Assembly: GCA_964016885.1 (NCBI GenBank)
Contig: OZ024744.1
Span: 80,228,001-80,292,000, forward strand
DNA length: 64,000 bases
Reading direction: 5' to 3'
Source of the DNA: Eledone cirrhosa
Taxonomy: Eukaryota
Shown here: one piece after another, positions 1,151 to 60,821 of the stretch
Position numbering within the stretch: the first letter of the stretch is position 1
Layout: each line of letters starts with the position of its first letter
Notes under the pieces: generated by a model
Databases searched by the model: none
The model's input: the letters and a program-made list of their open reading frames with translations, nothing else
Told to the model about the DNA's origin: nothing
Program-made: the position numbers and the translations under genes

Positions 1151-1273
1151 TAGTAATAGTAGTAGTTGTAGTAGTATGTTAAGAGTGAAAGTAAAAGTGT
1201 TCAGCTAGCAAGGACAGTGTGTATATATATATATAAAAGAAGAAATTAAAAGATGGTTAAAGAAGTTCCATAT

Positions 1274-1341
1274 ATTTTATTATGCGCATTTCGAAAACAA
1301 CATCATCCTGGGACAAGAATTGTGTTCTCATCAGATAAAAT
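1274..1341 (-). ncRNA. Type I hammerhead ribozyme motif
   Basis: Minus strand reads attttat-CTGATGA-stem II-GAAA-tgcgca-TA-ataaaat. Confidence 0.8.
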
Positions 1342-1410
1342 AAGGTAACATGATATGAGGCCTAAAAACACATGTCAACAGGAAAGTGCAAAGCCTACAT
1401 ATGTTACCTT

Positions 1411-1478
1411 ATTTTATCTGATGAGAACACAATTTTTGTCCCAGGATGATGTTGTTTCCGAAATGCGCATAATAAAAT
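1411..1478 (+). ncRNA. Type I hammerhead ribozyme motif
   Basis: attttat CTGATGA gaacac...gtttcc GAAA tgcgca TA^ataaaat; 7-bp stem I and palindromic stem III. Confidence 0.85.
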
Positions 1479-1606
1479 ATATGGAACTTCTTTAACCATC
1501 TTTTAATTTCTTCTTTATATATATACTCCAGTTCTACCAGCTGTTGAGTGCTACTTATCTGATATATATGCATAGTTTTATTGTTCTACAATATTACTCA
1601 CCTTCT

Positions 1607-1646
<40 letters not shown>

Positions 1647-1651
<5 letters not shown>

Positions 1652-1847
1652 AACCAGTAAGACCCCGACAGCTGAGCTCAAGCCGTTTCGACGGCTAATT
1701 CTGGACTCTGAGTCCAGAATTAGCCGTCGAAACGGCTTGAGCTCAGCTGTCGGGGTCTTACTGGTTCCTATTACCCACTCTACTACCTCAAGTATTGAGT
1801 ACTTTGGTGCGTTATGGTCCACCTGGTTCCTTACCACATTTCCTTCG

Positions 1848-1848
<1 letters not shown>
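1647..1848 (+). mobile_element. Perfect ~124-bp palindrome plus 3' tail inserted in (TA)n
   Basis: Palindrome 1647-1770 centred on ggactctgagtcc; tail contains actctactacctcaagtattgagt; (TA)n on both sides. Confidence 0.75.
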
Positions 1849-1895
<47 letters not shown>

Positions 1896-2582
1896 TAGTG
1901 AAAAATTGAACGGGAACAAAACAGAGAGGCAGTACGAACAAAGGTTTATTAATTTCACGCTCTTGAGAGTGGGGTGATGGTGGGAGAGAGGGGAGTAAAG
2001 GTAGGGTGAGGGAGATAGTTGGAGTGAAGCGTTTAGAGAAGGGTCGAATGTAAGATAGAGTGAGAGGCTTGTAGAGTGATTGAGTGCTAAAGTGAATATT
2101 AATGAACGTATGTGAAAGGAAGATAAAATACGTAGATAGATGAACGCGAGAGGATAGCAAAATAAAATCGAAGTAGAAACAAACAAACAAAAAATAATGG
2201 TGGTGGTAGTGGTAGTGGAGGGAGGACATTTAGATGGTTCAAATTTAGAATGTCTGTTCGTTCGGATTAAAATTAATATGTTAAATCTGTTGTAATTGTA
2301 AGGATTTTCAGAGCTGGACCAGACCAGACCAGACTAGAATTGTGAATCATTTTGAGTATGACTAAAACTGAGGAAAAGAAAGAAAAAAAAAAAAAAATAA
2401 ACGAGTGTTAAGATATCAGAAATAAACAAGGAGAAATCATAAAAGAAAAAAAAATGCAGTATAAAAATAAAAATCATGGTGGTGTGGGTGGGAGCGTGCG
2501 GATAGGAAATGATAAGGTGTAATGACGGCGTTGAGGAAGGCCTAGAAGAGCCGGATCTCAAAACCTAACCCGCCTACATTAT

Positions 2583-2614
<32 letters not shown>

Positions 2615-2615
<1 letters not shown>

Positions 2616-2798
2616 AAGAAAGAGTTGTGGTAAGGAACCAGATGGACGAATACTCAATACTTAGGGTAGTAGAGAGAGTAATAAGAAAATGTATGACCCC
2701 GACGGCAGAGCTCAAGTCGTTTCGACGGCTATTTCTGGACTCAGAAATAGCCATCGAAACGGCTTGAGCTCTGCCGTCGTGGTCATACATTTTCCTAT
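2615..2798 (-). mobile_element. Second copy of the 1647 palindromic family, opposite orientation
   Basis: Arms about 2675-2736 and 2741-2798, homologous to 1647-1770; tail on the left; TA flanks. Confidence 0.75.
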
Positions 2799-4419
2799 AT
2801 ATATATGTGTGTGCGTGTGTGCGTATATATATAAGATAGAGAGGTATACATGTGTATATATTATATATATGAGAATATATATATATATATAGTATACATC
2901 CTTCTCACTCGTGTGTGTATATCTGCGTGTGTGTCTGTGTCTGTTTAAGTCTGAATCTGTGTGCGCGCGCGTGTGTATGTGTCTGTATTAGTGTGTGCGT
3001 GTGTGTATATATGTGTATGTGTGTGTGCACATTCTCTCCGACGGCCTTTATCAAACAAACATCTGGAACAAAAATCAATATATTGGAACAACTGGCCAAA
3101 AAATGAGAATAACCAACATATTAGAGATATTCTTCATGAAATGTTTTGGAATCTGATAATATTTCACATAACTGCTGGGCAGACATAGCCTTAATACCAT
3201 CGATAGAGCCTCTGAATGTAGTCGTTTCACTTGCTAGAAATAGTAGTCAAATCTTCCATAATACTCTGACCATCTTTAAAAAAAAAAATAGACTCGTTCG
3301 ATAGATACAGTCGCACGTAGACTGTCTGAAAGGAAAAATATGTGAAGGTCATTGCTAGAACGTGTTTGATATTATATGTCTCCTGGATCAGAACTGACCT
3401 GGAGCTAAATAACAATTACAGCCACTAATACTAGCTATTCCCACCGAGGTTAACTTTGCCTTTCATCTTTACGGGGGTCGTTAAAATAAAGTACTGGAAT
3501 AATTGCTGGCCTTGTGCCAAACGCAGAAACAATTATTAGTAAAGCGTTGGACACCATGCTTGCAGCCCTTTACGTTCTAAGTTTGAATCCTGTCGAGGTT
3601 AGCTTTGCCTTTCATCCTTACATTGTCGATGAAATGAAGCACCACTAGGGATCAATCTAAGCGACTTTCCCCTCCCTTTCAAATTGCTAGCCTTGTGCCT
3701 AAAGTAGAAACAATTGTTATATTATACTAGCAGAAAAACCACCCTTCGCGTGGTTTTCTGCTAGCATGTGTAGTGATGTAGATATGATACATCAAATAAA
3801 ATCGAAATTGACAATATATAATACATAGAAATTGAACGAAGACTGCGTTACACTGTCTTATTTAATCAGTAACGTAATCCATGATACATTAAAAAGACGA
3901 TATTATATATAAACTGCATTAGGAGAAAATTGGTGACAGAAAATTAGTATTTTTATTTAAGTGATGGCCAACCGGAAGAGTTGACATTTCAGAAATTTTG
4001 AAGAAGTGAATCTTTAAATAAACAAAATATATTTAATGAACAGCCACGAAATTTTAGTAGATAAATTATGTAATATTCATTCATTATTTATTCAAAGTAA
4101 TCCAACTTATTTTACTAATGGGATAATAAATTATAAACCGTGCGCAGTCCCGCGCTCCTTACTTTATTGTAGTTTATCATCCCTTTAGGGTCTGAGTTCA
4201 AACCCCACCGAGGTTAACTTTGACTTTTATCCTTACGGGGTCGATAAAATAAAGTACCAGTGATACACTGGGATAATTGCTGCCCTTATGCCAAAAGTAG
4301 AAACAATTATTAGATAATAAAGCCGTAGATACACAGTCTGAATAATGGGATGGTTACAACTTGAACATGTTTGATCATAGGTCTACTGGATCAGGACTGA
4401 CATTGGACTACACAATAAC

Positions 4420-4915
4420 TATAGTAGTGGTAAACCCCTCTTCTGGGATGCCATATGCAGCGACACTTTCTCCAGCGGCAGCCTGGTGCAGTCTACTACT
4501 AATCCAGGCTCTGCTACACTTCGAGCCGAGGAGGGTAAACTCTCCAAATATCAGTCTCTCTCCGACAGGTTGGTGGTCGAGCCCGTAGCAGTGAGGACTC
4601 CTTGGCTGTAGGGCCACCTTCCCGCTCACCACCATCGGCACAGCTGGAATGGTTCTTCCAACGCGTCTCCCTCATCATGTCTGGGGAAATGTCTTCTCTA
4701 TTCTGTCCGCCGGGGCCGCGGGGCGGCCAGCGCGTGGGCTCCCGTTTGCTTATAGTAATGAGAGATGGGAGAGCGAAAGAGAAAGACGAAGGCAGTGAGT
4801 GAAAGAGAGAGAACATCAACGAAGACAGATGTTATTTTGAGGTGGATAGTTTTAGTATCTTGTTTGTGAAATCAATAAGGATGGTGTCGTTCGTTATATA
4901 CAGCATGTCTTGGCT
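4420..4915. mobile_element. GC-rich interspersed repeat fragment (putative LINE 5' region)
   Basis: 4669-4775 is similar to 16501-16612 (ccctca.cat...tctctattc...tttgcttata.taat.agagatggg). Confidence 0.45.
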
Positions 4916-5330
4916 GTTTTAAACCCTAGCGTAGCCCATCTCTCTACTGGTTTTAAGCCCTAGCGTAGCCCATCTCTCTACTGGTTTTAAGCCCTAGCGT
5001 AGCCCATCTCTCTACTCGTTTTAAGCCCTAGCGTAGCCCATCTCTCTACTCGTTTTAAGCCCTAGCGTAGCCCATCTCTCTACTCGTTTTAAGCCCTAGC
5101 GTAGCCCATCTCTCTACTCGTTTTAAGCCCTAGCGTAGCCCATCTCTCTACTCGTTTTAAGCCCTAGCGTAGCCCATCTCTCTACTCGTTTTAAGCCCTA
5201 GCGTAGCCCATCTCTCTACTCGTTTTAAGCCCTAGCGTAGCCCATCTCTCTACTCGTTTTAAGCCCTAGCGTAGCCCATCTCTCTACTCGTTTTAAGCCC
5301 TAGCGTAGCCCATCTCTCTACTGGTTTTAA
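4916..5330. repeat. 34-bp minisatellite, about 12 near-identical units
   Basis: Unit gttttaagccctagcgtagcccatctctctactc repeated head to tail with no spacers. Confidence 0.95.
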
Positions 5331-5918
5331 CACAGTCGAATTTCTTCCAGAGAAAGCAGACCAAGAACTACTGTACTATATATATAATGTAATCCCCAAA
5401 ATACTATATCTGAATAAGAGATGGGATGGTCATAGTTGGAATAACTTTGATCATAGGTTTGCTGATAGGATGTTTGTATAGAGTTCTTAATGTGTGTGTG
5501 TGTGCGCGTGCGCGTGTGTGAGTGTATAAAGTGGTTGTGCTGATGAGAGGACAAAAAGCGCTCAGTCTACCCTGTAAGGTGGTCGTGCTGATGATTCTAC
5601 ACAAAGCACCCAGTCCACACTGATGTTAGGATGTGCATCCAACTGTAGAAATCAAGGCAAAATACAGATCTATATTAGCAAGTGAGTTACCTGACGTGAT
5701 TTGTCGCATAATGTGACAACCCGTCTAACCCATGCAAGCGTGGAAAATGGTCGTTAAAGCTGTCTGTCTGTATGTATGTATGTATGTATGTATGTATGTA
5801 TGTATGTATGTATGTTTCTCTGTATGTATGTGCAAAAAGTAAACAGAAACGAACAAAGCAAATAAGACAGTACAATGAAGAAATATATTAATTTAACGCT
5901 TAATATAGAAGAAAAAAA

Positions 5919-6474: not shown

Positions 6475-6543
6475 ATTTTATCTGACGAAAACGCAAATGT
6501 TATCGCATGATGATATTTGTTTTTGAAATGCGCATAATAAAAT
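6475..6543 (+). ncRNA. Type I hammerhead ribozyme motif (same family as 1411)
   Basis: attttat CTGACGA ... GAAA tgcgca TA^ataaaat, followed by atggaact...aaccatctttt as in the 1411 copy. Confidence 0.75.
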
Positions 6544-8393: not shown

Positions 8394-8771
8394 CCTCAGT
8401 GTATACTGATTAATGTTCTGAGCCATCCTCAGCATTCTCGTGTAGCACCCATCCACCATCTGAGTGAGTTTCTTGGTCAGTGTCCAAGTCTCAGACCCGT
8501 ACAGCAGCACAGACTCAACTAGTCACCTCAAAAGTGACACAGAGGAGTCTGAGGTTAGCTGGACATGCTCACCGACATCCAGAGTTGCACTCTGCTCCTG
8601 TGGGAGCCCCTACATGGACACACTGGAAGTGGAAGACCAAGGTTAACGTATGTTGGTGCCCTAAGGACAGACACTGGTCTATTGGAGACGCAGGACATGG
8701 CAGCGATAACGAGGGACAGAGACCGCTGGAGAGAACTCGTCCATGGATCTCGGGAATTTTACCCGCCCTAG
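8394..8771 (+). mobile_element. 5'-truncated RTE-clade LINE 3' end with a 5' inversion
   Basis: 8528-8771 matches 44692-44944 directly; 8394-8517 is the reverse complement of about 44528-44650. Confidence 0.85.
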
Positions 8772-9089
8772 AAATATATATATATATATATATATTTTTT
8801 GTAAATTTTTTTTCGTTCTTATTTATTTATTTAGTTATTCCTGCTTCCTAACTACTGCTCGTATCTGTGTATACATTTTTGAGTGCATATATATCTGTGT
8901 ATATGTATGCGTATGTATTTTTGTATATATCTGCGTATATGTATGTGTATGTATTTATGTTCCTGTCCGTATTTCTATGTAGACGCAAATACGCTTATGT
9001 GAGAAAGTATACGTCTACGTACTTTTTTAGTATATGCGCGTAGTTGAGTGTGTGTATGTTTACGTTCTGGATATTTATATTTTTATATA

Positions 9090-9380
9090 TTATTCAGAAT
9101 ATTAATAAATGAAGTCATTCACATAATCAAAATATATGTTTTATTATATATATTTCGAAGGTACTGTGCTGTTTTTCAGTACGTCCTCGTCAGAAAAAAC
9201 AGCACAGTACTTTCGAAATATATATAATAAAACATATATTTTGATTATGTGAATGTCTTCATTTATTAATATTCTGAATAACATTAATAACTCCAGAAAA
9301 CTTCTTTGTAGAGTGCTTTTAATCTATTGTAAAACTATATTTATTGAGTAATCAATGAACCATATTAATCTTTGGTTATA
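9090..9380 (+). mobile_element. Fold-back HHR-bearing insert (same family as the termini of 32783-34850)
   Basis: Arms about 9090-9176 and 9194-9281; tail actccagaaaacttctttgtagagtgct. Confidence 0.8.
9139..9199 (-). ncRNA. Hammerhead ribozyme motif
   Basis: Minus strand: tttttt CTGACGA ggacgtactg...cagtaccttc GAAA tatata TA^ataaaa. Confidence 0.75.
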
Positions 9381-12940: not shown

Positions 12941-13209
12941 AAGTAGTGACTAAGTATTTCTCAGATATGCTTACCTTTAATATAATTAATTCTCGGGTGA
13001 ACGATTTAGCATATCATGGTTGTCACTTTGAATTACAGGTACAGTCCAACCGACAGGCTTCCAAACAGTTTCTGTCTACCAAATTTCACTCATAAGACAT
13101 GGTTCGACTCGAAGCTCAGTATGATGAATGACGCTGATGATTCCGCAATGGGATTAAATGCGGGATCTAATGATTGCGAAGCGAACTCCTTAACCATTTT
13201 CGGACATAC

Positions 13210-14420
13210 ATCATCATCATCATCATCACCACCACAACCACCACCATCATCATCACTATTACTACTATTACTACTACTACTACTACTACTACTACTACAA
13301 TTTCGCCGCCACCACCATTATCATCACTATCGCCACTACTACAATTCCACCATCCCCGGCGTCACAACAACAATACCATTATCACCACTACTACAATTTC
13401 GCCACCACCACCACCACTACAATTTCGCCACCACCACCACCACTACAATTTCGCCATCACCACCACCCCATTATCACTACTACAATTTCACCACCACCAC
13501 CATTATCACCACTACCACTACAATTTCGCCACCACCACCACCACTACAATTTCGCCATCACCACCACCACCACCACTACTACAATTTCACCACCACCACC
13601 ATTATCACCACTACCACTACAATTTCGCCACCACCACCACCACTACAATTTCGCCATCACCACCACCACCACCACCACCACCCCATTATCACTACTACAA
13701 TTTCACCACCACCACCATTATCACCACTACCACTACAATTTCGCCACCACCACCACCACTACAATTTCGCCATCACCACCACCCCATTATCACTACTACA
13801 ATTTCACCACCACCACCATTATCACCACTACCACTACAATTTCGCCACCACCACCACCACTACAATTTCGCCATCACCACCACCACCACCACCCCATTAT
13901 CACTACTACAATTTCACCACCACCACCATTATCACCACTACCACTACAATTTCGCCATCACCACCACCACCACCACCACCACCCCATTATCACTACTACA
14001 ATTTCACCACCACCACCATTATCACCACTACCACTACAATTTCGCCACCACCACCACTACAATTTCGCCATCACCACCACCACCACCACCCCATTATCAC
14101 TACTACAATTTCACCACCACCACCACCATTATCACCACTACCACTACAATTTCGCCACCACCACCACTACAATTTCGCCATCACCACCACCACCACCACC
14201 ACCCCATTATCACTACTACAATTTCACCACCATTATCACCACTACCACTACAATTTCGCCACCACCATTATCACTACTACCGCCACCACCACCATTATCG
14301 CCACTAACTACAATTCCACCATCACCGGCGCCACAAGAACAACAACAACACCAACACCATTATGACCACTACCGCCACCACCACTACTATAATCCCAGCA
14401 GCACCACCACCTCCACCATC
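13210..14420. repeat. Compound (ACC)n-rich minisatellite
   Basis: Alternating units actacaatttc(g/a)cc, ccattatca and variable (acc)n runs. Confidence 0.95.
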
Positions 14421-15755
14421 TCAATAGCTGCCACTGATTAATTCCCCTCTCCCAGACCCTCTTTCAATGTCGTCATAGTATGACTCATCGTTAAAGTATA
14501 AACATTGATGGCTCATGCAGGGACATGCAACATGCATGGTGTGATCGCACTTATTTTCACAGGCATACACACATACACATGTACATACATGCATACATAC
14601 ACGTACATATATGCATTCACACATGCATACATATACACATGCACACATACATACATACATACATACATATATACATATATCCATACATATACACATAAAT
14701 GCATGGATACATACATATGTACGTACATACATACACACATGCATGCATACATACATACCTACACACATAAATGCATGCATTCATACATATACATATATAC
14801 ATACATCCATGCATGCATACATACATACATACATACATACATACATACATACATACATACATACATACTGTTTCCGTTTAGGAGGTAATTCTCCTCCCAC
14901 AGAACTATGAATGAGAGAGAGAGTAGGGAGAAAAGGGAGAGGGGGGGGCAACGTAGATAGAGTGGGGGGAGAGTAAGGAGTGAGAAAGAAGCAAGTGAGT
15001 AGGCAGAGAGAGTAATAAAACGGAGACGAGGGAGAAAGTAGATAGAATGGGGAGAGGGAGTAAGGATTGAGAAAGAAGAGATAGAGAGAGAGAGAGTAGG
15101 GCGAGAAAGAAAAGTGAGAGATGAAGAATGAATAGGCAAAGAGAGTAGACAAAATGAATAGTAAGAGAGGTATGGGAGAGTAGAGAGAGGAGAGGAAGAG
15201 AGAGTTAATGCTCCTTCAGATGTTACAGTTTTTGCAAAGGGTTCCAGATACTAAGGGAAACCCGGAGATTTTTCTATTATTGTTATTATTATTTATATTT
15301 TTATTAATATTATTTAAATTTTTGTTGGCTTCCGGAAATTAATGCAGTTTCCTCAACTGTAAACAACTGTTTGTTATTTTTTTTTAACGTTTTTTAGTTG
15401 TTTTTTTCTTCTTTTAATACATTTATTTAGTTACAACATAATTATAATAATCATGATCATATTATTAATAATGATTAATAATAGTAATAAAATTATTATT
15501 TAGTCTCTCTCTCCTTTCGTTCAGTGATTAAAAAAATAAATAAGAAAAACAAAATTTGCTTTTATAATACAAGAACACCAACAACAACAACAACAATTGC
15601 AACAAAACAGAGAAGTAATGTAAAATGAAATGAAATGGTTTTATAACACCATTAACAACCTTAAAATATCAACTACAAAGTTGTTTATTACAACAGTATA
15701 AACGGGGGTCAAACAGACACACCCCTATGTTTCTCATAATGATTTTTCATTGTAA

Positions 15756-21451: not shown

Positions 21452-21651
21452 NNNNNNNNNNNNNNNNNNNNNNNNNNNNNNNNNNNNNNNNNNNNNNNNN
21501 NNNNNNNNNNNNNNNNNNNNNNNNNNNNNNNNNNNNNNNNNNNNNNNNNNNNNNNNNNNNNNNNNNNNNNNNNNNNNNNNNNNNNNNNNNNNNNNNNNNN
21601 NNNNNNNNNNNNNNNNNNNNNNNNNNNNNNNNNNNNNNNNNNNNNNNNNNN
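21452..21651. other. Assembly gap
   Basis: 200 N characters. Confidence 1.
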
Positions 21652-23362: not shown

Positions 23363-24920
23363 TTAGGTAAGGCGGGTCTTCTCTATTACTGAGTACCGCC
23401 AAAGGTCTCGGTCCAGTGACATTGTCTTGGAGAGGTGTAAGCGTGTGAGGTCGGAATTTATCAGCTCGTCCCATGTTTTTCTGGGTCTGCCTACTCCGTG
23501 GCTACCGTCTATCTTTATTGCCCTGCAGTTTGTTATACAGCTGTCGTCTTTCATGCGCATCACGTGACCGTACCAACGTAGCCTTCTCTCGAGTAAACAA
23601 CATCTGATCCCTCTTATTTCTAATTTTTTCCTTAGTTCGTTTATGCTTTGCCGTTCACGTATATTACTATTGCACATCCAGCGGAGCATGCAAGCTTCGT
23701 TCCTCTCTAGTCTGCGTATATCCTCTGCACACAATGCCCAGGTCTCACTGCCATGCAGCATTGCTGTTCGTATGCAGGCATCGTATAACCTGCCTTTCAT
23801 TTTTAGGGAGAACCCTCTAGCGGCTAATAGTGGTATAAGCTCTCTGAACTTTTTCCATCCAGTTCTGACTCTAGCTACTGTACTTTCAGAGCACCCTCCC
23901 CCACTGGTGATTTTGTCACCCAGGTAACGGAAGCTGTCCACTATTTCTATAGAACCCTCTGCGCAGTTGAAGGAGCTAGTATTTTGTGGGCACTTGCTGC
24001 TACTTATTGCACCAGAGCACCGGCCACATGTAAAATCTATGTTCTTAGTTAGCTTACCTGTGATCCCACTACATCTTTTATGCACCCATACTTTGCATTT
24101 GGGACATAAAATGTTTCTACCTACGCCTTTCCTACACACTGAGCATGGCCATTTCCGGAAGGGACTGCCGCCATATTTTCTTTCCTACAAACTAGAACTT
24201 TTGTCTTAGCCAGGTTAATTTTAAGGCCTTTTGATTCTAGGCCGTGCTTCCATGTTTGGAATTTCTTCTCTAGTTCGGTCATTGATTCAGCTATGAGCGT
24301 TAGATCATCTGCGTATAGGAGTTCCCATGGGCAGCCGGTCTTGAACTCCTCTGTTATAGCCTGAAGGGCAATAATAAATAGTAGGGGGCTAAGAACAGAG
24401 CCCTGATGGACACCAACTTTTACGCTAAACTCTTCACTATATTCGTTGTTAATTCTAACCTTACTGACTGTTTCTTTATACATGGCTTGTATAGCTCTCA
24501 CAAGCCATTCGTCAACACCTAGTTTTCTAAGAGACCACCAGATAATGGAACGGGGGACTCTGTCGAAGGCTTTCTCCAAGTCGACGAAAGCTAAGTATAG
24601 GGGTTTACTTTTAGCTAGGTACTTCTCCTGTAGTTGTCGTACAATGAAAAGAGCGTCTGTGGTACTTTTGCCTGACACAAACCTGAACTGCATTTCATCT
24701 AGGTCAATTCTCTCTCTGATTAGTTGCGCTATTACTTTTTCCGTGACCTTCATGACCTGGTCGATTAATTTAATGCCTCTATAGTTACTCCTATCTAGGG
24801 CATCTCCTTTTCCCTTATAGCAGTTAACGATGATGCTGCTACGCCAGTCCTTCGGAACAACCCCATTCTGTACGACTTGGTTAACTATCCGGGTGACCAT
24901 GGTGTGTCCCACCGAACCAG
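23363..24920 (-). pseudogene. RTE-clade non-LTR retrotransposon reverse transcriptase, 5'-truncated and frameshifted
   Basis: ORFs 24121-24912 (NYRGIKL, FVDLEKAFDRV, GVHQGSVLSPLLF, LLYADDL) and 23363-24139 (Cys-rich insert, FRYLG, LHGSETW, LRWYGHV, GRPRKTW) overlap in different frames. Confidence 0.95.
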
Positions 24921-26337
24921 ATATATATATATATAATACAAAACTACTCCTTACCTCTCATCCTCAAAGCCATTAGATATCCTCATCATTGTACTCTCTC
25001 TACCCCTTGTTCACCCACATTAGACCCCTACCTGTCCCACCATCATACTCCTCCCACTCCTCATACACTAATCCCCTACTTATCTCTCCATCACACAGCC
25101 ACCATATTGACCATACACCCAAAACACTGCATCTCCCCCCACCCCATTCACTAATCAGTGACTCATACTTCTTACTCATCATCCTGCCAAATCCCTGCAT
25201 ACACCTATAATTTCATACCTATCTCCCTCACCTATTGCCCCTCCTCCCCTGAGCAGAGAGGGTTCTATAGTTGTGTCTATGACCAACAACCTCTCTAGTG
25301 ACTTTGTAAGAATGGTCGACAGCAGGAAGAGTATCCCATTGTAGAAACCATACCTAAAAGGGTTGAGAGGACCCTTTAGTTGCATCAAGGACATGACAAC
25401 CTTGGTAGTGCTGGTGATCTACACAATAAAAGCACGCAGTACATGCTGTAAAGTGGTTGGTGTTAGAAAGGACATCCAGCCATAGAAATCTTACCCAAAC
25501 AAGGGTCTGTATCAAAAGACACACCCTCTCTACACTTGATAGAACGTACAGTTGTATGTAGGTGAGATGCAGGCACCTCGGCTTGTCAGTAGCCCCACTT
25601 CAAAGCGGACTTGGCCTATATGGACCCACCCAATCCTTGCTAGCAAGAAAAGTGGATGTTATACAATGATAATGATATATATACAAACACACTCACACTG
25701 TATATTAAAGCTGATTTTATGTGGTGGTCAATACACTTACTCAATATATGTTGTTGTTGTTGTTTTTTAAAGAATTTTATGGAAAGTTAACATACTTTAA
25801 GATTTACTGATAAATTCTTTATTTTCTCAAAAATATGTATCATAATTATCTTACACTTTATTTTGGCAGAATTCCAAGATCTTTTGTGTTTGCATAAGAT
25901 AATGATAAAAAAAATTTCAAAAAATAAAACGGCACATAGGCAGCATAAAAAAAAACGTAGTAAAGATAACTCAGAAGTAATTTTTTTGTGTTTTGATTCC
26001 ATTTAAACCTGAGACAGTGTGTGGCCTAGTGGTTAAGGTGTCATACATAATGAGTACCAGCAGTAGCTGCAATGGACTGGCATCCTGTCCAGGGGCGTGA
26101 GGTGGAGGTATTGTACTCTCAGTTGCTTAATGACATGGAAACCGGGATCAGTACTGGTCTAATGAACATCTAGGCTTGAGACAGACTTTATACATCTATA
26201 TATATTGAAAAGATGTGTAGCCTAGTGGTTAAGATGTCAGTTTTATGTATGTAAGGTGTCATAGACACAATCTCTAGCCTGAGTAACATGCGACCTTAAG
26301 CAAGTCACTTCATTTTATGTTCTAGTTCTATGTACGG

Positions 26338-29272: not shown

Positions 29273-29819
29273 AGGAAAGTCATTAAGAATTTCAGATGTA
29301 AAATGGGGAAACCACACCACATCTATACCAAGTGAAGTGATAGGCAACAGTGATGTTGTGCTTGTTGTTATATGTGGGTGATGTATACATGTGTAGGCAT
29401 GCCATAATACCTTTTTCCAACAGTTTTGCCAACCCACTGCACTTATATATACCAATAATACACATGAAATATATCAAAACTGAATGTAACAGTACATATA
29501 CATATCAAACTACAATCATGACGCTACCAAACAGAAAATAAACAAAATTCAAAAAAATCTGTCTCTATATAAATATTAATTTCTGGTTTAGGCACAAGGC
29601 CTGCAATTTTGTGGAAAATGCAAAGTCGGTTAAATTGATCTTTTTGCATGACTCGTATTTTATTTTATTGACCCAGTAATGATGAAATACAAAGCTAATC
29701 TCTGTGGGATTTGAACTCAGAACATAAAGGATCATAGCTCAATGCCACAAGCATGTTGTCCAATGCCCCACTAATACTGTCAATCCATCGCCCTTATGTA
29801 TGCATATATATATATATAA

Positions 29820-30306
29820 TGAAAGAGTGAAGAATAACATGGTCAACAGTACAAAAAGGGTTTTATTTACAGTATTAACAATTGTTTCATTGATTAGGAT
29901 GTCTAAAGATTGCTAATCACTTGAAGTTGTGTCACTCAATCTTAAATACAGTGTATGCTTAATCAAATCATTGGAATAACTGTTATTCCGATGATTTGAT
30001 TAGGCATACACTGTATTTAAGATTGAGTGACACAACTTCCAAGTGATTAGCAATCTTTAGACATCCTAATCAATGAAACAATTGTTAATACTGTAAATAA
30101 AACCCTTTTTGTACTGTTGACCATGTTATTCTTCACTCTTTCACTATTATTACTCCAAGAATGACCTGCATAGGAATTCCCGGGAACTCGCCACCTAACT
30201 AAGGAGACTTCTTGTTGAGTCAAACAACGCCGTACGTTAAAACTATCCACAATACAGAGTACTCACAACCTCTAAGCGGTTACCTATAATGATAATTTGT
30301 TATCCC
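29820..30306 (+). mobile_element. ~324-bp palindrome with an HHR in each arm plus a 3' tail, in (TA)n
   Basis: Arms 29820-29980 and 29982-30143; tail 30144-30306. Confidence 0.85.
29982..30091 (+). ncRNA. Hammerhead motif with long stem II domain (core CCGATGA)
   Basis: gttatt CCGATGA t ttgattagg...cctaatcaa t GAAA caattg TT^aatac. Confidence 0.65.
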
Positions 30307-30719
30307 ATATATATATACTAATATATATATATATGCTAATATATATATATATATATATATACTAATATAATACCCACTGTGTATTTGTCTGTCACACACT
30401 AGAGATGACTGAGGAAGGAAGGGGGGATTATGTCGACTGAGGAGGAAAGGGGTGATAATGTTGATTAAGGAAGGAAGGAGTGATTACGTCGACTGAGGAC
30501 AAACATCTCTTTTTTATATTATGTATAGATATAACAATTAGCTGTCATTTTTGACGGCATGGGACTAGCCAGTCTATATATAAATAATAAAAGAAACCCC
30601 AAAACAAAATTAAATAACTAAATAAAAGAAGGATTTGGTAACTGTTGACAAAATACTACCAATGTGTGGATTGTTTTTTTGAAAAATATCATGTCCCTAT
30701 ATATAGATTATTAATAATA

Positions 30720-32287: not shown

Positions 32288-32772
32288 ATATTGAAAGAGT
32301 GAAGAATAACATGGTCAACACTACAAAAAAGGGTTTTATTTACAGTATTAACAATTGTTTCACTGATTAAGTTGTCTAAAAATTGCTGAACACTTGAAGC
32401 TGTGCCACTCAATTTTAAATACTCTGTTAGCTTAACCAGATCATCAGAAGGGACTGATGATCTGGTTAAGCTAACAGAGTATTTAAAATTGAGTGGCACA
32501 GCAATTGTTCAGCAATTTTTAGACAACTTAATCAGTGAAACAATTGTTAATACTGTAAATAAAACCCTTTTTTGTACTGTTGACCATGTTATTCTTCACT
32601 CTTTCAATATTATTACTCCAAGATAAACTTACATAGGAATTCAACAGAACTCGCAAACTTGCCACCTATGGAAACCTCTTGTTGAGTCAAACAACGCTGT
32701 ACGCTAAAACTATTCACAATACGGAATATTCACAACCTCTGGATTACCTATAACGATATTTTGTTATCCCTT
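32288..32772 (+). mobile_element. Second ~320-bp palindrome of the 29820 family, with tail
   Basis: Arms 32288-32447 and 32454-32610; centre tcatcag-aaggga-ctgatga; tail to 32772. Confidence 0.85.
32454..32553 (+). ncRNA. Hammerhead motif with long stem II (intact core; 5' strand of stem I lost at the fold-back)
   Basis: CTGATGA t ctggttaag...cttaatcag t GAAA caattg TT^aatac; mirror copy on the minus strand. Confidence 0.7.
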
Positions 32773-34285
32773 ATATATATATAAAACCAAAGATTAGTAT
32801 GTTTTGTTGATTACTCAATTAATACAATTTTACAATAGATTAGAAGTACTCAACAAAAAGTTTTCCTGGAGTTTTTAATATTATTCAAAATATTAACAAA
32901 TGAAATATGTTCTCATAATCAAAATATATACTTTATTATATATATTTCAAAGGTACTGTGTTGTTTTTTCAGTACGTCCTTATCGGACAAAATATATGAT
33001 TTGATATATGACATAACACTATGATCTTGATTATTCAATTCCAGTATTGGCAGTGATTTATTTCATCAAATCTCAACATTTATATACCACAAATAATATG
33101 ATAAACTTAAAGAAGAAAAGGACATAGAGCAAATTAGAGATATGAGGGAGGGTGTAAAGAAGAGAAAAGGCATGGAAAAATATATAAATACATATATAAA
33201 TAGATAAATGAATAAAAAATAAATAAATGGATGAATGAATAAAAGAAATATATAAAAAAAGAAAAGAATAACGACAAAAGAGAGGGAAGGTGTGGGGGAA
33301 AGTAAAGGGAACGGGGGGGGGGGGGGGGAATAAAGAAAAATAAGGGAACATCAAATAGAGGGGGATAGAGAAAAAAAACGTTTTCAAATGTTAGATCCAA
33401 TAGGACATCTAATCAATTCACATAAACAATTGCATATCTCTTGTATTTGATTATGCATTAGCAAATTATACTTATATATTATATCAAAATTAATCAGTAT
33501 AGATTACTTTCTATAGCAATCACATATTTAGTTTAATTAAGAATTTATATAATTTAATTTAACTCATTATAGAATATTATTTTTAATTTTAAGGTAAGAT
33601 ATTCTATAAATATTTTGTTACAACTTTAAAAGAATTAATCTTTAAAGCGTATTTAAATAATTATTAAATATGTATTAAAATATAATACCATGCATATATC
33701 AACATCAATACATATAATATATTTAGATCATTTATTACCCAAATTATTTAATTTAATTAGGATATTCTCTTTATAAAATCTTTACTATTCTTTAATTTTC
33801 ATTTAATTCCTAGGATTAAACTGCAGTTATATTTACTCTCAAAAGTTTTATTTCATTAATTCAATGAAAGGTTATATTGACTTCTGTATTTACTTATTTT
33901 GATATATAGTTTCCTTTTAATGATAGTCTTATATTATTAATCTACATATTTCATATCTAATATAATTTAGCAAGCTAGTCAAAAAGAAAAGAAATTTTTA
34001 CGGACAATGTAAACAAAAGGAAGATAACTCATTCACCATATACAAACATTTAAAACTTATATCTAATCTCACGTCCAGCGATATTTCAAAACCATAAATC
34101 ATTTATTGTCTAGTTAAATATTGAACTGTCCTAATCAAAACATAGGATAACGACTCTTAATGAAATTATTCTAATACATATAAATATCAATAAATTATTA
34201 TCACAATAAGGCAAAACTTATATTTAAATTATTAATTGTCAATATTTTTTCGAAACTTGAACATTGCCTGGAAAGTTTTACCAAT

Positions 34286-34646
34286 TTTATGGTGACAACT
34301 ACTAAATAATTCTTTTTTTTTTTTTGTTGATTAAATTGTCATAATTTGTAATTATCTGTTGAGTCTCAAGGTTACAAAGATTGCAATTTTGCGAAATAGT
34401 TGAGTTCTGATAGGAATTAGCATTCTTTAATTTTGTCCAAGAGATATAGTATTTAATATTATTGTCCTTTAAAGAACATACTAATTGTGAAAGTGAAGTT
34501 GAAAATTTCTTATCTGGTTTACTGAAAGAGTGTCTATGATTATACCAACATTCTTTAAATTTAGATGAAGTGGCACCAATGTAATTATATATATTATTAT
34601 TTGTCTTAATGGTACATTTATATACTAGATTCTTGTCAAGGCAATT
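34286..34646 (-). pseudogene. Penelope-type GIY-YIG endonuclease domain remnant
   Basis: Manual translation: NCLDKNLVYKCTIKTNNNIYNYIGATSSKFKECWYNHRHSFSKPDKKFSTSLSQLVCSLKDNNIKYYISWTKLKNANSYQNSTISQNCNLCNLETQQIITNYDNLINKK..ELFSSCHHK, with LVY...YIG, CxLC and CxH motifs; frame across the A-run not certain. Confidence 0.85.
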
Positions 34647-34736
34647 ATTTTGTATTGAGATTTGATGAAATAAATCACTGCCAATACTGGAATTGAATAA
34701 TCAAACCGTAACAGTATGTCATATATCAAATCATAT

Positions 34737-34800
34737 AATTTTTCTGATGAGGACGTACTGAAAAAACAACACAGTACCTTTGAAATATATATAATAAAGT
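34737..34800 (+). ncRNA. Hammerhead ribozyme motif in the inverted terminal repeat
   Basis: CTGATGA ggacgtactg...cagtaccttt GAAA tatata TA^ataaagt; the partner copy at 32930-32993 (minus) has a mutated core CCGATAA. Confidence 0.75.
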
Positions 34801-35073
34801 ATATATTTTGATTATGAGAATACTTTTCATTTGTTAATATATTGAATAATATATATATATATATATATATGGATATTGATCTAAACCCGTTGCTTGGCTG
34901 GTCTCGCTTAGGGATCCGAGATCCAGCCAGATCAGTTTGAGATGGTTGCTTCTGACAGGACCCGCTGGAAGGAGTGTTTGAGAACTGTGCCCCCATGACT
35001 CTCTCAGGAATAAGTGGGCAAAGAAGAGGAAGGAAGGTTCATGTTGAGTTATTATAATTATTAATATTTTTAA

Positions 35074-35290
35074 AGGGCGGTGGATTGGCAGTATTGGTAG
35101 AGCATTGTACACAATGCTTTGCAGCGTGGAGTTACGGCCCTTTACATTCAGAGTTCAAATCCCACTGGGGTTAGCTTTATCTTTCATCTTTATGGGGCTG
35201 ATAAAATAAAGTACCTGTAATGCACTGGGGTTGATATAATCGACTTTCTCTTGTCCTAAAATTGTTGGCCTTGTGCCTAAATTAAAAACC
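35074..35290 (+). mobile_element. tRNA-derived SINE (major family, longer variant)
   Basis: Same head and boxes, with an extra gatataatcgactttctc segment. Confidence 0.8.
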
Positions 35291-35935: not shown

Positions 35936-36127
35936 GGCGGTGGATTGGCAGTATCGGTAGAGGGTCGGACGCCATGCTTTGACGCATAGAGTTACGGCCC
36001 TTGCCATTCTGAGTTCAAATCCTGCTGAGGTTAACTTTGCCTTTCATCCTTACGGGGTTGATAAAATAAAGTACCAGTAATACACTGAGTAATTGCTGGC
36101 CATGTGCCAAAAGTAGAAACAATTATT
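35936..36127 (+). mobile_element. Full-length tRNA-derived SINE with TSD
   Basis: attattattacaca occurs before (35922-35935) and after (36122-36135) the element. Confidence 0.9.
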
Positions 36128-36944
36128 ATTACACACATACACATCTATATGATGACTGCGGAAGGAGGGGGTGAGAAACTATAGAAGTCCAGCGTTCTAA
36201 GATACGTCAAAGCTGTGTGTTAGTATCACTTGTGTAAATGAGCGCAAAGGAACCAACCAGCCAACCAACAAACAAACAAACATGTCTTTTTTTTTATATT
36301 ATGTATAGATATTACAATTAGCCATCATTTTTGATGGCACAGGACCAGCTATTTATTAATATTTTTAAACCAACTAATTATTGTATTGCTATTGTTTCAT
36401 TGTGAAAGGTAGGTTGCCTTTATAATGTTATTGCTAATATTACATAAGATTTTCTTACTCATTAATCTCGACTGATCTCGACTTTAGTAAGATTAATTAA
36501 TCTACATTTGAGGCTAGAAAGAAAATTATCCTTATTGTTCTTGTGTGTGAGTTATGCCTCATGTTTAAGTAAACATTCTAATCTATTATCTTATTTTTAG
36601 TTTATCAACTATACTATTTACCACACTGTTAATATTATGGTCATTTTTTTTTTATTATTGTTCTTGGTTACGCTTTTATTTAGTAGCTGCTTATAGTAAC
36701 TATTTTTAGTTTTATTAGAAAATATAGATTTTTTTTGTTTTATTTGTTTTGTTTTGTTTTGTTTTTCATATATAATTCTCATTGTTCTTATTATCAGATT
36801 AAAATATATTTTGGAAGGTATTAATGTACTTACAATAAAAGATTAAAAGACAGGGTTCAACAAATTCTAGGTCCTTAATTCTGGGGGAGAAGAAGAATGA
36901 GGATGTGTGTCTTTACATCATAGGAGGGTATTTTGATGACTTAA

Positions 36945-37174
36945 CCCTTTAGCATTTAAACCGGCTGTATCAGGCCAGAATTCTCTCACCTCTTTCTGTT
37001 CAAAGTTCTAACCAGCTGTAGCAGACTGCTCATACTGATGTTAAAGTATTGTACTCAAAATAAATAACATCAAAATATCATAGATTCGATATTATGTGAG
37101 ATAATTATGTAAGGAAAGCCTTTACTGTGAAAAGATAATAGTAAATATAGAGTAATGTAAATAAAACTAAAGGG
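36945..37174. mobile_element. piggyBac-like MITE (other copies 19848-20183 and 42781-42987)
   Basis: TTAA|ccctttagcattt ... aaactaaaggg|TTAT. Confidence 0.7.
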
Positions 37175-41738: not shown

Positions 41739-41846
<108 letters not shown>

Positions 41847-41876
41847 CTCTGATTTATCTGAATTATTGAGCCCTCT

Positions 41877-42062
41877 GCCGGTGGATTGGCAGTATCGGTA
41901 GAGGGTCGGACGCCATGCTTTGCAGCATAGAGTTACGTCCCTTTACTATCTGAGTTCAAATCCCGCCGAGGTTGACTTTGCCTTCCATCCTTACGGGGTC
42001 GATAAAATAAAGTACCAGTAATGCACTGGGTATGTGCTGGCCTTGTGCCTAAAGTAGAAACA
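41877..42062 (+). mobile_element. tRNA-derived SINE (major family)
   Basis: Near full-length copy. Confidence 0.85.
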
Positions 42063-42118
42063 CAAGTCGATGTTGTACGGTATGTCAAATCTATTTATCT
42101 ATAAAACTGTTTATATTG

Positions 42119-42184
42119 TATTTTGTCTGAGGAAGGCATAGCATATTGTTAATATGATATCCCTGAAATATATATAATGAAATA
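42119..42184 (+). ncRNA. Type I hammerhead ribozyme motif
   Basis: tattttgt CTGAGGA aggcatagcatatt gtt aatatgatatccct GAAA tatata TA^atgaaata. Confidence 0.75.
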
Positions 42185-42224
42185 GATATGGTTTTATAAA
42201 TATAGTTTCCATTTATTTAATATC

Positions 42225-42307
<83 letters not shown>

Positions 42308-44295: not shown

Positions 44296-44489
44296 GTAGA
44301 GGTTATATTTAATTTGTTGGAATACAACAAGCAAAATATTTTTATAACTGATATAAAGCACTCAACAAATTATTGGAGTAAATATACAATATGCCTTGGT
44401 GGCTCTTGAAATATGTATAATGAAATAAATATGGTTTTATAAATATAGTTTCCATTTGTTAATATATTGTATATATATATATATATATA

Positions 44490-44944
44490 CAAGAGACATG
44501 AAAATCCGCCTCTTCATTGCTGTAGTGGAGTCTGTGCTGCTGTATGGGTCTGAGACTTGGACACTGACCAAGAGACTCACTCAGATGGTGGATGGGTGCT
44601 ACACGAGAATGCTGAGGATGGCTCTGAACATTAATCAGTATACACTGAGGATGAAAAACTCAGAGCTGTATGGGAGCATCCCAAAAGTCAGCTCAAAAGT
44701 GACACAGAGGAGACTGAGGTTGGCTGGACATGCTCACCGACATCCAGAGTTGACATTGCACTCAGTGCTCCTTTGGGAGCCCCTACATGGACACACTAGA
44801 AGAGGAAGACCAAGGTTAACATATGTTGATGCCCTAAGGACAGACACTGGTCTGTTGGAGATGCAGGATATGGCAGCGATAATGAGGGACAGAGACCGCT
44901 GGAGAGAACTCGTCCATGGATCTCGGGAATTTTACCCGCCTTAG
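44490..44944 (+). mobile_element. 5'-truncated RTE-clade LINE 3' end
   Basis: Open frame KIRLFIAVVESVLLYGSETWTLTK...RLRLAGHAHRHPE...RGRP; (AGAT) tail. Confidence 0.9.
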
Positions 44945-48159: not shown

Positions 48160-48347
48160 AAAGTTTTATTTAAAATTGTTGGGTTACAACGAGTAAATAT
48201 TTTATAACTGATATAAAAGCACTCAACAAGTTTTGGAGTATTTTACGATATTAAACAAATGGAAACTACATTTATAAAACCATATTTATTTCATTATATA
48301 TATTTCAGGGATATCATATTAAAAATATGGTATTTTGTTTAATATCG

Positions 48348-48349
<2 letters not shown>
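48158..48349 (-). mobile_element. Fold-back insert of the 42119 HHR family (also 44302-44472)
   Basis: Long arm with tail is truncated in HHR stem II; 16-bp inverted arm tacgatattaaacaaa/tttgtttaatatcgta. Confidence 0.7.
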
Positions 48350-48382
<33 letters not shown>

Positions 48383-52111: not shown

Positions 52112-53139
52112 AACACATACAGTTTGTATAGCGTGCTGAAGAAGATGCAGCATATATATACACACAGCAATTCGACCTAGTAGAAATAGCAGCCAAATCT
52201 GACCTAAATCTCACATTACCATCATTAAAAGAGGACATAGTTTCAAATGTCCTAAAAAATATTTGTCTGAAAAAAAAAAATGATATGGTCACTACTGGAA
52301 TACCTTTTGATTCATAGGTCTGATAGATCATGGTTGACCTAGGGTTAAACAACAACAACAACAACAACCATACAAACAACTAGTTTACTGCTATTGTTGT
52401 TTAGCTCCGTCCCAGTTATGACCATTCCATTTATTCCCATTTTATTTTCAGACATAGTTTTGCATCCAGGACTACGTTCTCTAAAATGTCCTTGATTTTT
52501 TTTTTTTTCTTTTTCGGGTAGTAATCTGTGTTTTTAGGGAGACTTGTGTTATATTTCTAACGGGTAAATTAGATGCCTATACATGTAGGGAATGTTTCCT
52601 CGTCCCTCCATATAGATATCATAAAAGTACACACACACACACACACACACATACATGTATGTATGCTGGAAATGTGGTAAAATAATGGTTTCTGATATAG
52701 GCACAAGGCCAACAATTTTTGTGGAGTAGGGTAAAGTCAATTAAATCGACCCCAATGCATTACCGGCGCATTGTTTCATCGACCCTGTAAGGATGAAAGG
52801 CAAAGCTAACCTCGACAGGATTTGAACTCAGTGTGCTAAAATAATTGTTTCTATTTTTGGCACAAGGCCACCAATTATCACAGTGCATTACTGGTACTTT
52901 ATTTTATCGACCCCGTAAGGATGAAAGGCAAAGTCAACCTCGGCGGGATAGATAAAATATGTTTGGTATTAAGATATTGACGTACCTTATGAAAGCACAT
53001 AAAATAAATATGGTATTATAAAGATATTTTCCATTTATTAATATTGTTAATATTAATAATACTCCAGAAAAAACTTGTAGAGTGCTTCAAATCTGTTATA
53101 AAATTATCTGTTGAATAATAATCAACAAAAAATATAACT

Positions 53140-53185
<46 letters not shown>

Positions 53186-56975: not shown

Positions 56976-57016
56976 GAGGTTATATTTAATTTATATATAT
57001 ATATAAATGAAGTAAT

Positions 57017-57150
57017 TCCGTCGGAAAAGTCCAGGAAAAAAGAGTGCTCTATGTAGGTAACAGAGCTTAATTATTATTATGTAATAAACAACATAAGGCA
57101 ATTATTGGTAAATGGAATAATTGCCTTATGTTGTTTATTACATAATAATA
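57017..57150 (-). mobile_element. Fold-back insert of the 63303 HHR family
   Basis: Arms about 57072-57106 and 57116-57150; tail ggaaaag...agagtgctctatgt. Confidence 0.7.
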
Positions 57151-57183
<33 letters not shown>

Positions 57184-59670: not shown

Positions 59671-60611
59671 TCAGATATTCAGGACGTATCGGAGGGTTCT
59701 TGCTATTCCCAGCAAGCATGCCTTTTGAAGCGTTCCAAAAAGCGTGGAGGGGCCAATTTTCTTTAACCATCCCTGGAAACTTTTTGAGATAGTACCTAGT
59801 GCGCCTATGACAATCGGGACCACTTTGACTTCATGGCAGTTCCAAATCCTTTTTACCTCCAACTTTAAGTCCTGGTATCGGTTAATTTTCTCCCTCTCCT
59901 TCTCTTGCACTCTCGTGTCGAATGGGCAGGCCACATCCACAATCAGGCACGATCTTTTTTCTTTGTCCACAACCACCAGGTCAGGTCTATTGTGTTCCAG
60001 TTTCTTGTCCGTCTGTATCCTAAAATACCACAGCACCTTCACCTGGTCGTTTTCTATCACCGACTCTGGCTTATGCTCATACCACTTCTCAGAATGTGGT
60101 AAATTGTTTACTTTGCATAGGTGCCAGTGGATCACCCTGCCCATCACATCATGTCTCCAGCCCTTATAGTGAGTCTGGGCTAGGTGTTTACACTCGGATA
60201 CAATGTGAGCCACAGTCTCCTCTCTCTCTCCACAGATCCTGCACAGTGGGCTAGCCTCCTCCTTGTAAATATGGTGTTTCAACCACTTCGTTTTGAGGGC
60301 CTGCTCCTGCGCAGCCATTAACATTCCTTCTGTAGCCTTTTTAAGGTCTCCTCTTTTCAACCAGTTCCATGTCTGTGGATCTCTGAATTCAGTTTTCTCA
60401 AAGAAGGTACTATGAATGGATTTTTCCTGAAGGCTGTTCTTTCTCCTTGATGTTATTTCCTCCTTGGACATCCCCTGGTCTATTGTCCCCTCCTTCAGTA
60501 CAGTTCTGAGCATTGGCTCCTTACTATCAGTCACGTATTTGTGTAGGTTGTTTTTCTCCATCTGAACACAGTCCTCTATGCTGATAAGACCTCTTCCACC
60601 TTCAGATCTCC
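59671..60611 (-). mobile_element. R4/Dong-like non-LTR retrotransposon, C-terminal zinc knuckle and restriction-like endonuclease, 5'-truncated
   Basis: Uninterrupted frame with GGRGL, CRICGEREETVAHIVSEC (CCHC), RHD, RPDLVV, DVACP and EKINRY; 5' junction at (TAA)n 60612-60660. Confidence 0.9.
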
Positions 60612-60660
<49 letters not shown>

Positions 60661-60821
60661 GTTTTTTTTTGTTTTGTTTTTTTCTCGTGCAATGGCCATA
60701 CTCGATAACGAGAGGGCAGCCATCATGTATGTATGTAAAAGGTAAAAAGAAATAACAACACAATCAGTACAGTGTATGGAAGGAATATATTAGGTTAATG
60801 CTTGAAACAGCAGGAAGAGGA

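Follow-up and report, generated by a model that had tools for sequence, protein, structure and literature searches.

Layout of the 2-kb unit

On the minus strand of the 64,000-nt stretch of Eledone cirrhosa contig OZ024744.1 analysed here (hereafter the window), positions 32784-34852 hold a 2-kb unit that is one dead, 5'-truncated and 5'-inverted genomic insertion of a Penelope-like element (PLE). Its ends, together with those of related copies, point to a rule by which two small bulged hairpins, H1 and H2, would set where reverse transcription begins. In the minus-strand reading used throughout, the unit runs from (TA)n through an inverted arm (34852-34655), an endonuclease remnant (34654-34232), an AT-rich region (to 33077), a terminal repeat (33076-32878) and a tail (32877-32784) back into (TA)n. 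These features, with a mini-copy found elsewhere in the window, are as follows.

34853-34870, no strand: (TA)n target run beside the inverted-arm end (from sequence)
34655-34852, plus strand: short-end arm, a second copy of the 3' end that is 5'-truncated and lies in inverse orientation, 184/199 identical to 32878-33076
34744-34793, plus strand: type I hammerhead motif with intact core, long bulged stem II and palindromic stem III (core scan)
34232-34654, minus strand: dead, 5'-truncated Hydra-type GIY-YIG endonuclease (EN) remnant (homology, predicted fold)
33077-34231, minus strand: long AT-rich 3' non-coding region of about 1.15 kb, belonging to the family (covered by contigs of other copies)
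32878-33076, minus strand: 3' terminal repeat of pseudo-long terminal repeat (pLTR) type, hammerhead core decayed at 32986-32980 (match to the inverted arm)
32846-32872, minus strand: bulged hairpin H1, with RCTC stem, variable upper stem, 2-nt 3' bulge and GAGY-RC (covariation; model match, this copy being in the training set)
32784-32877, minus strand: tail of about 95 nt separating the short end from the long end and closing in (TA)n (missing from both inverted arms)
32772-32783, no strand: (TA)n target run, common to the tail end of an adjoining fold-back of another family (from sequence)
9085-9380, plus strand: fold-back mini-copy of the same family, other subfamily (matches both termini at 85-88%)

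The inverted arm is the reverse complement of 32878-33076 with 184 identities, 14 mismatches and 1 gap, and it halts about 5 nt ahead of the expected H1 start, where (TA)n follows. An earlier, sequence-only reading had proposed an inverted terminal repeat here, and this stands, with the arm/EN junction refined to 34655/34654 and the outer end to 34850-34852 (TA ambiguity). Its hammerhead-bearing terminal repeat with tail and its AT-rich 3' region were likewise recovered. The hammerhead of the inverted arm has a predicted cleavage site after 34793; the core of the 3' arm carries two private changes, at 32985 and 32981, positions at which about 99% of reads from other copies keep the intact letters. 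The AT-rich region is unusually long for the clade, bringing the 3' region to about 1.45 kb in all, and gave no Pfam match in any of six frames and no Hydra profile match.

The mini-copy consists of an inverted arm (9085-9198) and a forward arm (9193-9380) that carries H1 (9290-9316) and the tail, with an A-rich overlap of about 6 nt at the fold; the inverted arm extends 22 nt further 5' (to H1-120, in nt before the hairpin) than the forward arm (H1-98). The suggestion that this palindrome derives from the same family by extreme truncation also held, and it is an independent copy. (TA)n lies at both ends of both copies, and a target duplication is unreadable in such sequence. Two fold-backs of another hammerhead-bearing family (32288-32775 and 29816-30316) are 83% alike and share a long stem II, an H1 of the long-loop kind and a tail close to 160 nt; their fold points differ, and the former adjoins the 2-kb unit tail to tail in one (TA)n run.

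A scan for core plus stems found six hammerhead sites in the window, including that at 34744, against a mean of 0.03 in 30 shuffles. Neither the window nor 16 loci gave an Rfam match for the motif that reached the gathering threshold, and sub-threshold Rfam matches were only of miRNA type, to a neighbouring palindrome and to TA/CA runs; minimum-energy folding of the monomer prefers other hairpins over the hammerhead fold. A palindromic stem III is a feature of dimer-type PLE ribozymes (PMC4209133). Additional hammerhead cores lie at 6482 and 9512, and intact cores on opposite strands at 1334 and 1418. Related subfamilies of the studied terminus occupy 42090-42227, 44302-44470, 48160-48350 and 52950-53145, and include tailed copies and a solo copy of the short-end type whose hammerhead is intact (42127), in which stem III is kept and stem II is different yet still paired; in one fold-back of a related subfamily the forward arm is scarcely more than tail.

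Other copies of the family were recovered from reads mapped on 32700-34660 at 80% likeness, comprising two runs of one sample and two restriction-site-associated DNA sequencing (RAD-seq) runs under the same species label. The read sets represent at most three samples from two studies, and a fraction of 0.30-0.31 of the sampled words was present in each of three runs from one sample. Over 32700-34660, all 30 bins are covered by contigs of other copies and 28 of 30 by RAD reads, with collinear internal deletions in 33077-34231. In read set X1, the summed contig depth reaches 295,923 at 32898-32963, compared with 1,164-5,147 over 33426-34283, 431-5,067 over EN and 114-633 over low-complexity 33162-33425; these sums should not be taken for copy numbers, and the peak is raised by reads of related subfamilies. 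The long 3' region is thus part of the family and not unique flank, and copies pile up at the 3' end. At 32878, 292 and 323 RAD reads exit the family into TA-rich sequence, marking a fixed short end, and a divergent tail variant (loose end 32807) runs into TA close to where the long end does. Other subfamilies are abundant, with loose ends at 32910 and 32924; the loose ends given here are those among the matches listed, beside 1049 further ones. Contigs of other copies also hold at least three opposite-strand joints, at three different places.

Endonuclease remnant and clade

The EN remnant lies in an open frame without ATG (34302-34700, minus strand), whose element-derived part begins at the junction, 34654, and it reads LVY...YIG...NH..SF...CNLC..E...N. 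CNLCNLE and LIN in the remnant, with CHH past a frameshift, correspond to a CxxC before the catalytic Glu and a CxH after a conserved Asn. A run of 13 A (34313-34325) shifts the frame ahead of the CHH (34289-34297), and a nearly invariant Arg at position 36 of the EN query is replaced by Cys; with these two changes, the window copy is dead.

The 113-residue EN peptide matched 1815 proteins in phmmer at E<=1e-3 (best 1.1e-18). Its AlphaFold model, with a predicted local distance difference test score (pLDDT) of 87.6, aligned to the catalytic domain of I-TevI over 89 residues (Z 10.2, root mean square deviation 2.5), with T4 EndoII next (Z 8.5), in agreement with the GIY-YIG domain of the sequence-only reading. 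The peptide matched no Pfam family, and just two of nine homologues gave weak GIY-YIG scores; a PDB sequence search with the EN profile returned one non-significant row, a cluster look-up of 10 EN matches yielded no names, and none of 30 pattern matches in viral contigs was confirmed. Among the best 150 EN matches, Y[IVL]G was present in 133, CxLC in 131, CxH in 83 and CxCx5C in 62. The CxxC of CCHH type between GIY and YIG occurred in none of these 150 and in none of 51 parsed metagenome open reading frames (ORFs), and the window peptide has a single Cys in this interval. YRDD was visible in three of the 150, those long enough, and lay upstream of EN in each.

An alignment of eight longer EN matches retrieved 79 metagenome loci (from the best 80 of 451 confirmed stretches). 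Reverse transcriptase (RT) and EN share one ORF in 64 of them, with RT first in all 64, and the window peptide matches every one of these ORFs at E<1e-5 (best identity 44%). They contain CxCx5C in 58 cases and, as marks of a Hydra-type RT (a type without IFD), RWK in 36 and DKT/S in 46, and they end 18-52 residues past CxLCxxE. In the window, a stop comes after the EN remnant, and the 3' region and the terminal repeat come next. A hammerhead core follows the stop in 49 of the 73 loci with an EN end, at a distance of 33-461 nt, compared with about 1250 nt in the window unit. No RT was found after EN in the window copy by Hydra profile and Pfam searches. The linker that would precede EN is cut off in the window copy; other copies run past 34654 in 14 and 11 contigs, with a 30-letter consensus read by hand as in-frame N-C-x5-C-P.

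The Hydra clade, including Hydra-1_Obim, is described as having a C-terminal EN without CCHH, a CxCx5C-type linker, CxxC and CxH around the catalytic E and N, canonical hammerheads near the 3' end and (TA)n targets, while Naiads have an N-terminal EN with CCHH and lack the canonical hammerhead (Craig et al. 2021, PMC8557442). Since the EN here is C-terminal, lacks CCHH, carries CxxC/CxH and is accompanied by a hammerhead, the unit is Hydra-type and not Naiad. The sequence-only reading was thus right in calling it a Penelope-like GIY-YIG retroelement, given the RT-first homologues and the Hydra-type EN motifs, and mistaken in likening it to Naiads. Naiads do share its insertion architecture, its (TA)n preference and the inverted 5' copies, and Naiad remnants exist in cephalopods. 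A Naiad with an N-terminal EN is nonetheless exceedingly unlikely: the EN leads into a stop, the 3' region and a hammerhead with no RT, CCHH is absent, and the RT lies upstream in all 64 homologous ORFs. Penelope/Poseidon, Neptune and Nematis PLEs are ruled out by their C-terminal EN, which has CCHH, unlike that found here.

The unit is therefore very probably a Hydra-clade Penelope-like retrotransposon insertion made by target-primed reverse transcription into (TA)n. The link from its terminus to an RT, expected from a longer copy, was obtained only indirectly, in that other copies appear to enter the Hydra linker and all close homologues with an RT carry it upstream; the family's own RT was not seen. 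The family is, on its sequence, a putative new member of the clade, set apart by eye from Hydra-1_Obim of Octopus bimaculoides, whose hammerhead is a different one and whose 3' region measures about 0.27 kb versus about 1.45 kb here; a 10-letter stem II word of the window unit is absent from the PMC8557442 supplement. The same paper notes an inverted 5'-truncated copy of Penelope-13_HM, as in the window unit.

A heavily decayed N-terminal part of a Hydra-type ORF lies at 36350-36950 on the minus strand (best piece 36468-36587, tblastn E 3e-7, profile independent E-value 0.006). It sits 1.7 kb upstream of EN in the same orientation, with short interspersed elements (SINEs) and other repeats between, and is probably a separate, older insertion.

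Twin hairpins and the positions of the ends

Five nt past the short end, the tail of the window unit starts with RCTC...GAGYRC, the outer words of H1. The motif recurs at tail starts in at least four other repeat families of the window, where a covariance model found 14 sites at E<0.005, seven of them outside its training set; long-loop versions were recognised by eye at 32615 and 30152. In the metagenome loci, H1 lies about 35-60 nt past the hammerhead cleavage site. The start could be recognised in 36 loci; at least one motif stands upstream of it in 32 of these, and in 23 there is a pair, spaced 58-83 nt and, in these intact 5' regions, between the ribozyme and the ATG; the hairpin designated H2 is 8-59 nt ahead of the ATG in 31 of 32 loci. 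The model matched the sense strand in all 47 instances, which come from 30 of the 79 loci. Seven metagenomic Hydra elements (L008, L009, L018, L029, L043, L047 and L079) stand in partial tandems that run from 3' region through hammerhead, H1 and H2 to the next ORF start, an order which, on sequence, is likely to be that of the template.

Published Hydra consensus sequences carry the motif as well, with both copies at the 5' end of Hydra-1_Ajap. The twin hairpins can be seen in these sequences and go unmentioned in the text and supplement of PMC8557442, from whose text the words 'hairpin' and 'stem-loop' are absent, as is 'hairpin' from the supplement. No description of them was found in the literature searched, a body outside which lie most subscription papers, Repbase reports and Dfam; the twin-hairpin rule for ends appears to be undescribed so far.

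Pairing was tested on instances chosen by their outer words only, by scoring the next three positions across the 2-nt bulge. The H1 upper stem paired in 94 of 108 cells, compared with 59.3+-4.2 after shuffling (37 of 39 versus 22.7+-3.2 in the window). With one H1 taken per protein cluster at 60% identity (22 of 43 clusters), 56 of 66 cells paired versus 36.2+-3.3, a value reached in 0 of 5000 shuffles. In a 33-sequence alignment, 96% of cells were paired, against 80.0+-1.6 shuffled (0/500) and 23-60% in slid controls, and there were 44 double changes, against 14.6+-3.0 (0/500). The first H1 pair switches from G-C to A-U in six window sequences.

For the mapping of ends, 104 hammerhead segments were aligned to same-family segments that read further, giving 18 pairs, from which four contig-end cases were dropped. 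Of the 14 mapped ends, 10 fall 0-6 nt before H1 or H2. The window contains 16 tailed termini, eight of them with a clear inverted arm. All eight arms stop between H1-5 and H1+1, and each of these fold-backs has one short end and one tailed end, the partner arm carrying the tail. Locus L012 has the same build together with an RT ORF, its inverted arm (790-974) ending at H1-3 and its forward end at H2-4. Fold points differ between window copies. In the interval shared by four arms, nine columns group by insertion, none by arm type and one crosswise; arms that group by insertion and not by arm type indicate that both derive from one template lineage.

Termini of no fewer than five Hydra-type families are present in the window. 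Fold-back termini of three more families, at 1226-1625, 1647-1850, 2614-2798 and 57010-57152, have one short end near H1-5 and one tailed end, and H1-bearing tails closing in TA or CA runs are found at 43893, 48580, 49540, 54276 and 63268. An H1-like model match (41838-41877, plus strand, E 7e-4) is wedged between a TA run, which it follows immediately, and the head of a SINE.

Origin of the two ends

The explanation that we favour, with the identity of the insertion and the origin of its ends taken as a whole, is probably correct; towards its mechanistic part, described next, we lean modestly. The template RNA would be a read-through of a partial tandem comprising ORF, 3' region, hammerhead, H1, H2 and the next ATG. 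The RT-EN protein would bind H1 and H2, with cDNA starting a few bases 5' of each, and EN would nick both strands of (TA)n. One nick would prime from the H2 site and give the long end, including the tail, and the other would prime from the H1 site and give the short end. The two cDNAs would break off independently of each other (in this unit, 1782 and 204 nt 5' of H1), and the truncated products would be joined head to head with an overlap of 0-6 nt, long runs producing the 2-kb element and short runs the palindromes of 0.1-0.5 kb. The tail would then equal the H1-to-H2 interval, and the H2 of the window family is predicted just beyond 32784. In this scheme, RT would begin at two places, one set by each hairpin, with one DNA strand serving as the primer at each. 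It is somewhat less likely, though close to evenly balanced, that the two tandem bulged RNA hairpins dock an RT-EN dimer whose subunits would prime opposite strands in one coupled reaction.

Precedent comes from PAc, a Poseidon PLE of Anolis carolinensis, in which both strands are nicked and extended and RT starts at two internal sites that bound its tail, a pair of fixed ends as found here, with a dimer predicted (Frangieh et al. 2024, PMC11167929). It likewise has AT-rich targets and a hammerhead near the start sites. PAc differs in that its starts fall within a single AC-rich stem-loop of the ORF and its EN is of CCHH type (PMC11167929); here, each end is placed ahead of one of two separate, conserved bulged hairpins that lie outside coding sequence.

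Several observations weigh against this explanation or the assignments beneath it. The Poseidon start site is the same on both strands (PMC11167929), which gives no direct precedent for a strict pairing of one long with one short end. The H2 upper stem pairs in 56 of 84 cells versus 50.2+-3.2 shuffled, with no significant covariation; H1 alone folds weakly (z 0.18 and -0.14); its three invariant pairs are no evidence, since motif selection used the outer words; and G-U and A-C counts of 7 versus 5 do not tell RNA from DNA. Four of the 14 mapped ends were missed, three in cross-family alignments that break at H1-37 and one at H1-12. The probability of the end placement, 4e-8 under a uniform null and about 6e-6, by hand, under a stricter null (any position within some 45 nt ahead of the missing hairpin), is inexact, the 10 matching ends coming from about seven families, and with TA targets an end can be placed only to within 1-5 nt. 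Half of the tailed termini in the window (8 of 16) are without a clear inverted arm. Furthermore, the first Cys of the linker consensus past 34654 consists of two codon letters only, the family's own RT was not found in word-index protein searches (one of which, limited to proteins of 1132-3230 aa, was uninformative), and none of the listed contigs of other copies spans the whole 2-kb unit.

Alternatively, the hairpins may act in DNA, or as promoter or translation signals, with EN cutting the cDNA or a circular intermediate just 5' of H1 and H2 so that the ends come from resolution. This is a serious alternative, albeit a doubtful one. Craig et al. attribute the tail to EN-mediated resolution (PMC8557442), EN reportedly needed the D. 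virilis tail to recognise plasmid DNA (cited in PMC11167929), the wobble counts do not favour RNA, and the place of H2 shortly before the ATG (8-59 nt in 31/32 loci) would suit an expression signal. On the other hand, the variable loop length, one-sided bulge and covarying upper stem point to a single-strand fold, and RT starts at both tail boundaries were shown directly for Poseidon (PMC11167929). Snap-back of a single cDNA, with no second priming, would account for palindromes that are nearly symmetric with short loops (1647-1850, 32288-32610) but is quite unlikely as the source of the inverted arm: these arms go no further than the fixed H1 site and lack the tail in every case, the arm of the 2-kb unit was copied from about 1.6 kb away from the junction, and in two to three window cases the inverted arm is longer 5' than the forward arm, including the 22 nt at 9085 that its forward arm lacks and that snap-back cannot yield.

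It is also quite unlikely that the locus is a composite, in which a short copy later inserted in reverse inside an older, longer copy and the RT part was deleted. The decayed Hydra-type piece at 36468-36587 is in keeping with such a history, as are the 14 of 198 positions at which the arms differ and the blunt junction. However, both arms belong to one subfamily (columns 9:0:1) despite the abundance of others, the junction has no TA run, and the same build is found in L012 and seven other fold-backs. Inverted repeats near both ends and the many small palindromes of the window could suggest a non-autonomous DNA transposon of the miniature inverted-repeat transposable element (MITE) or foldback type with a captured GIY-YIG fragment, the palindromes being its self-propagating minimal form. 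This is very unlikely, given that the repeat is not terminal, with a 95-nt tail on one side only, that fold points are scattered (among window copies and at the three different opposite-strand joints in reads), that read depth drops steeply away from the 3' end, and that hammerhead and hairpin match RT-bearing PLEs.

The head-to-head arrangement also resembles L1 twin priming, in which two nicks prime two cDNAs and produce a 5' inversion. In L1, local base pairing serves for the second priming and the two arms have no sequence in common; the arms described here do overlap, and a structure fixes the position of both start points. The tail of about 95 nt in the window unit compares with 30-40 bp quoted for PLEs. 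Non-LTR (long terminal repeat) retrozymes are likewise short non-coding, hammerhead-bearing PLE derivatives, in head-to-tail tandems of units with a type I hammerhead each (bioRxiv 10.64898/2026.07.22.740005), whereas the window fold-backs are head-to-head with scattered fold points and one tail; a retrozyme origin for the unit is ruled out by its head-to-head arms and EN remnant. Truncated Schistosoma PLEs have dual hammerheads 100-700 bp apart on opposite strands (PMC4209133).

The window also contains other repeats, and with its TA microsatellites and dense SINEs it has the look of an octopus genome. A non-LTR RT remnant with a PHD-like domain lies at 23363-24957 on the minus strand (RVT_1 E 9e-33), and further non-LTR remnants at 44429-44944 (plus), 8468-8851 (plus) and 59671-60789 (minus) comprise two C-terminal pieces, which we take to be RTE-like, and another from the C-terminus that weakly matches zf-RVT. 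A SINE-like family with a unit length near 180 nt is abundant, with more than 20 copies on both strands, often as inverted pairs (e.g., 35078-35261, 35938-36121 and 41879-42062). A 34-nt minisatellite occupies 4848-5425, with about 12 registers and a core 98-99% alike, a long CAC/TAC-rich tandem region lies at 13010-14440, and a gap of 200 N at 21452-21651.

The element itself is an ordinary decayed PLE copy, and its significance lies in the rule that its ends expose. How a PLE RT chooses an internal start on its RNA, and why the tail is optional, has been approached by one in vitro study that mapped two starts, the later steps being unvalidated. A 25-nt covarying twin hairpin predicts both ends to within about 6 nt in octopus-like and metagenomic families, a prediction that can be tested by moving or mutating it. 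The hairpin may further serve as an annotation marker for Hydra termini missed by Rfam and Pfam, and with at least 14 hairpins in the 64-kb window, such remnants would explain many of its palindromes. If dimer docking is true, it would explain the PLE tail, the rule of one long and one short end and the mass of fold-back palindromes. The hairpins would then be a compact, portable signal that sets the template 3' boundary in the closest mobile relatives of telomerase RT.

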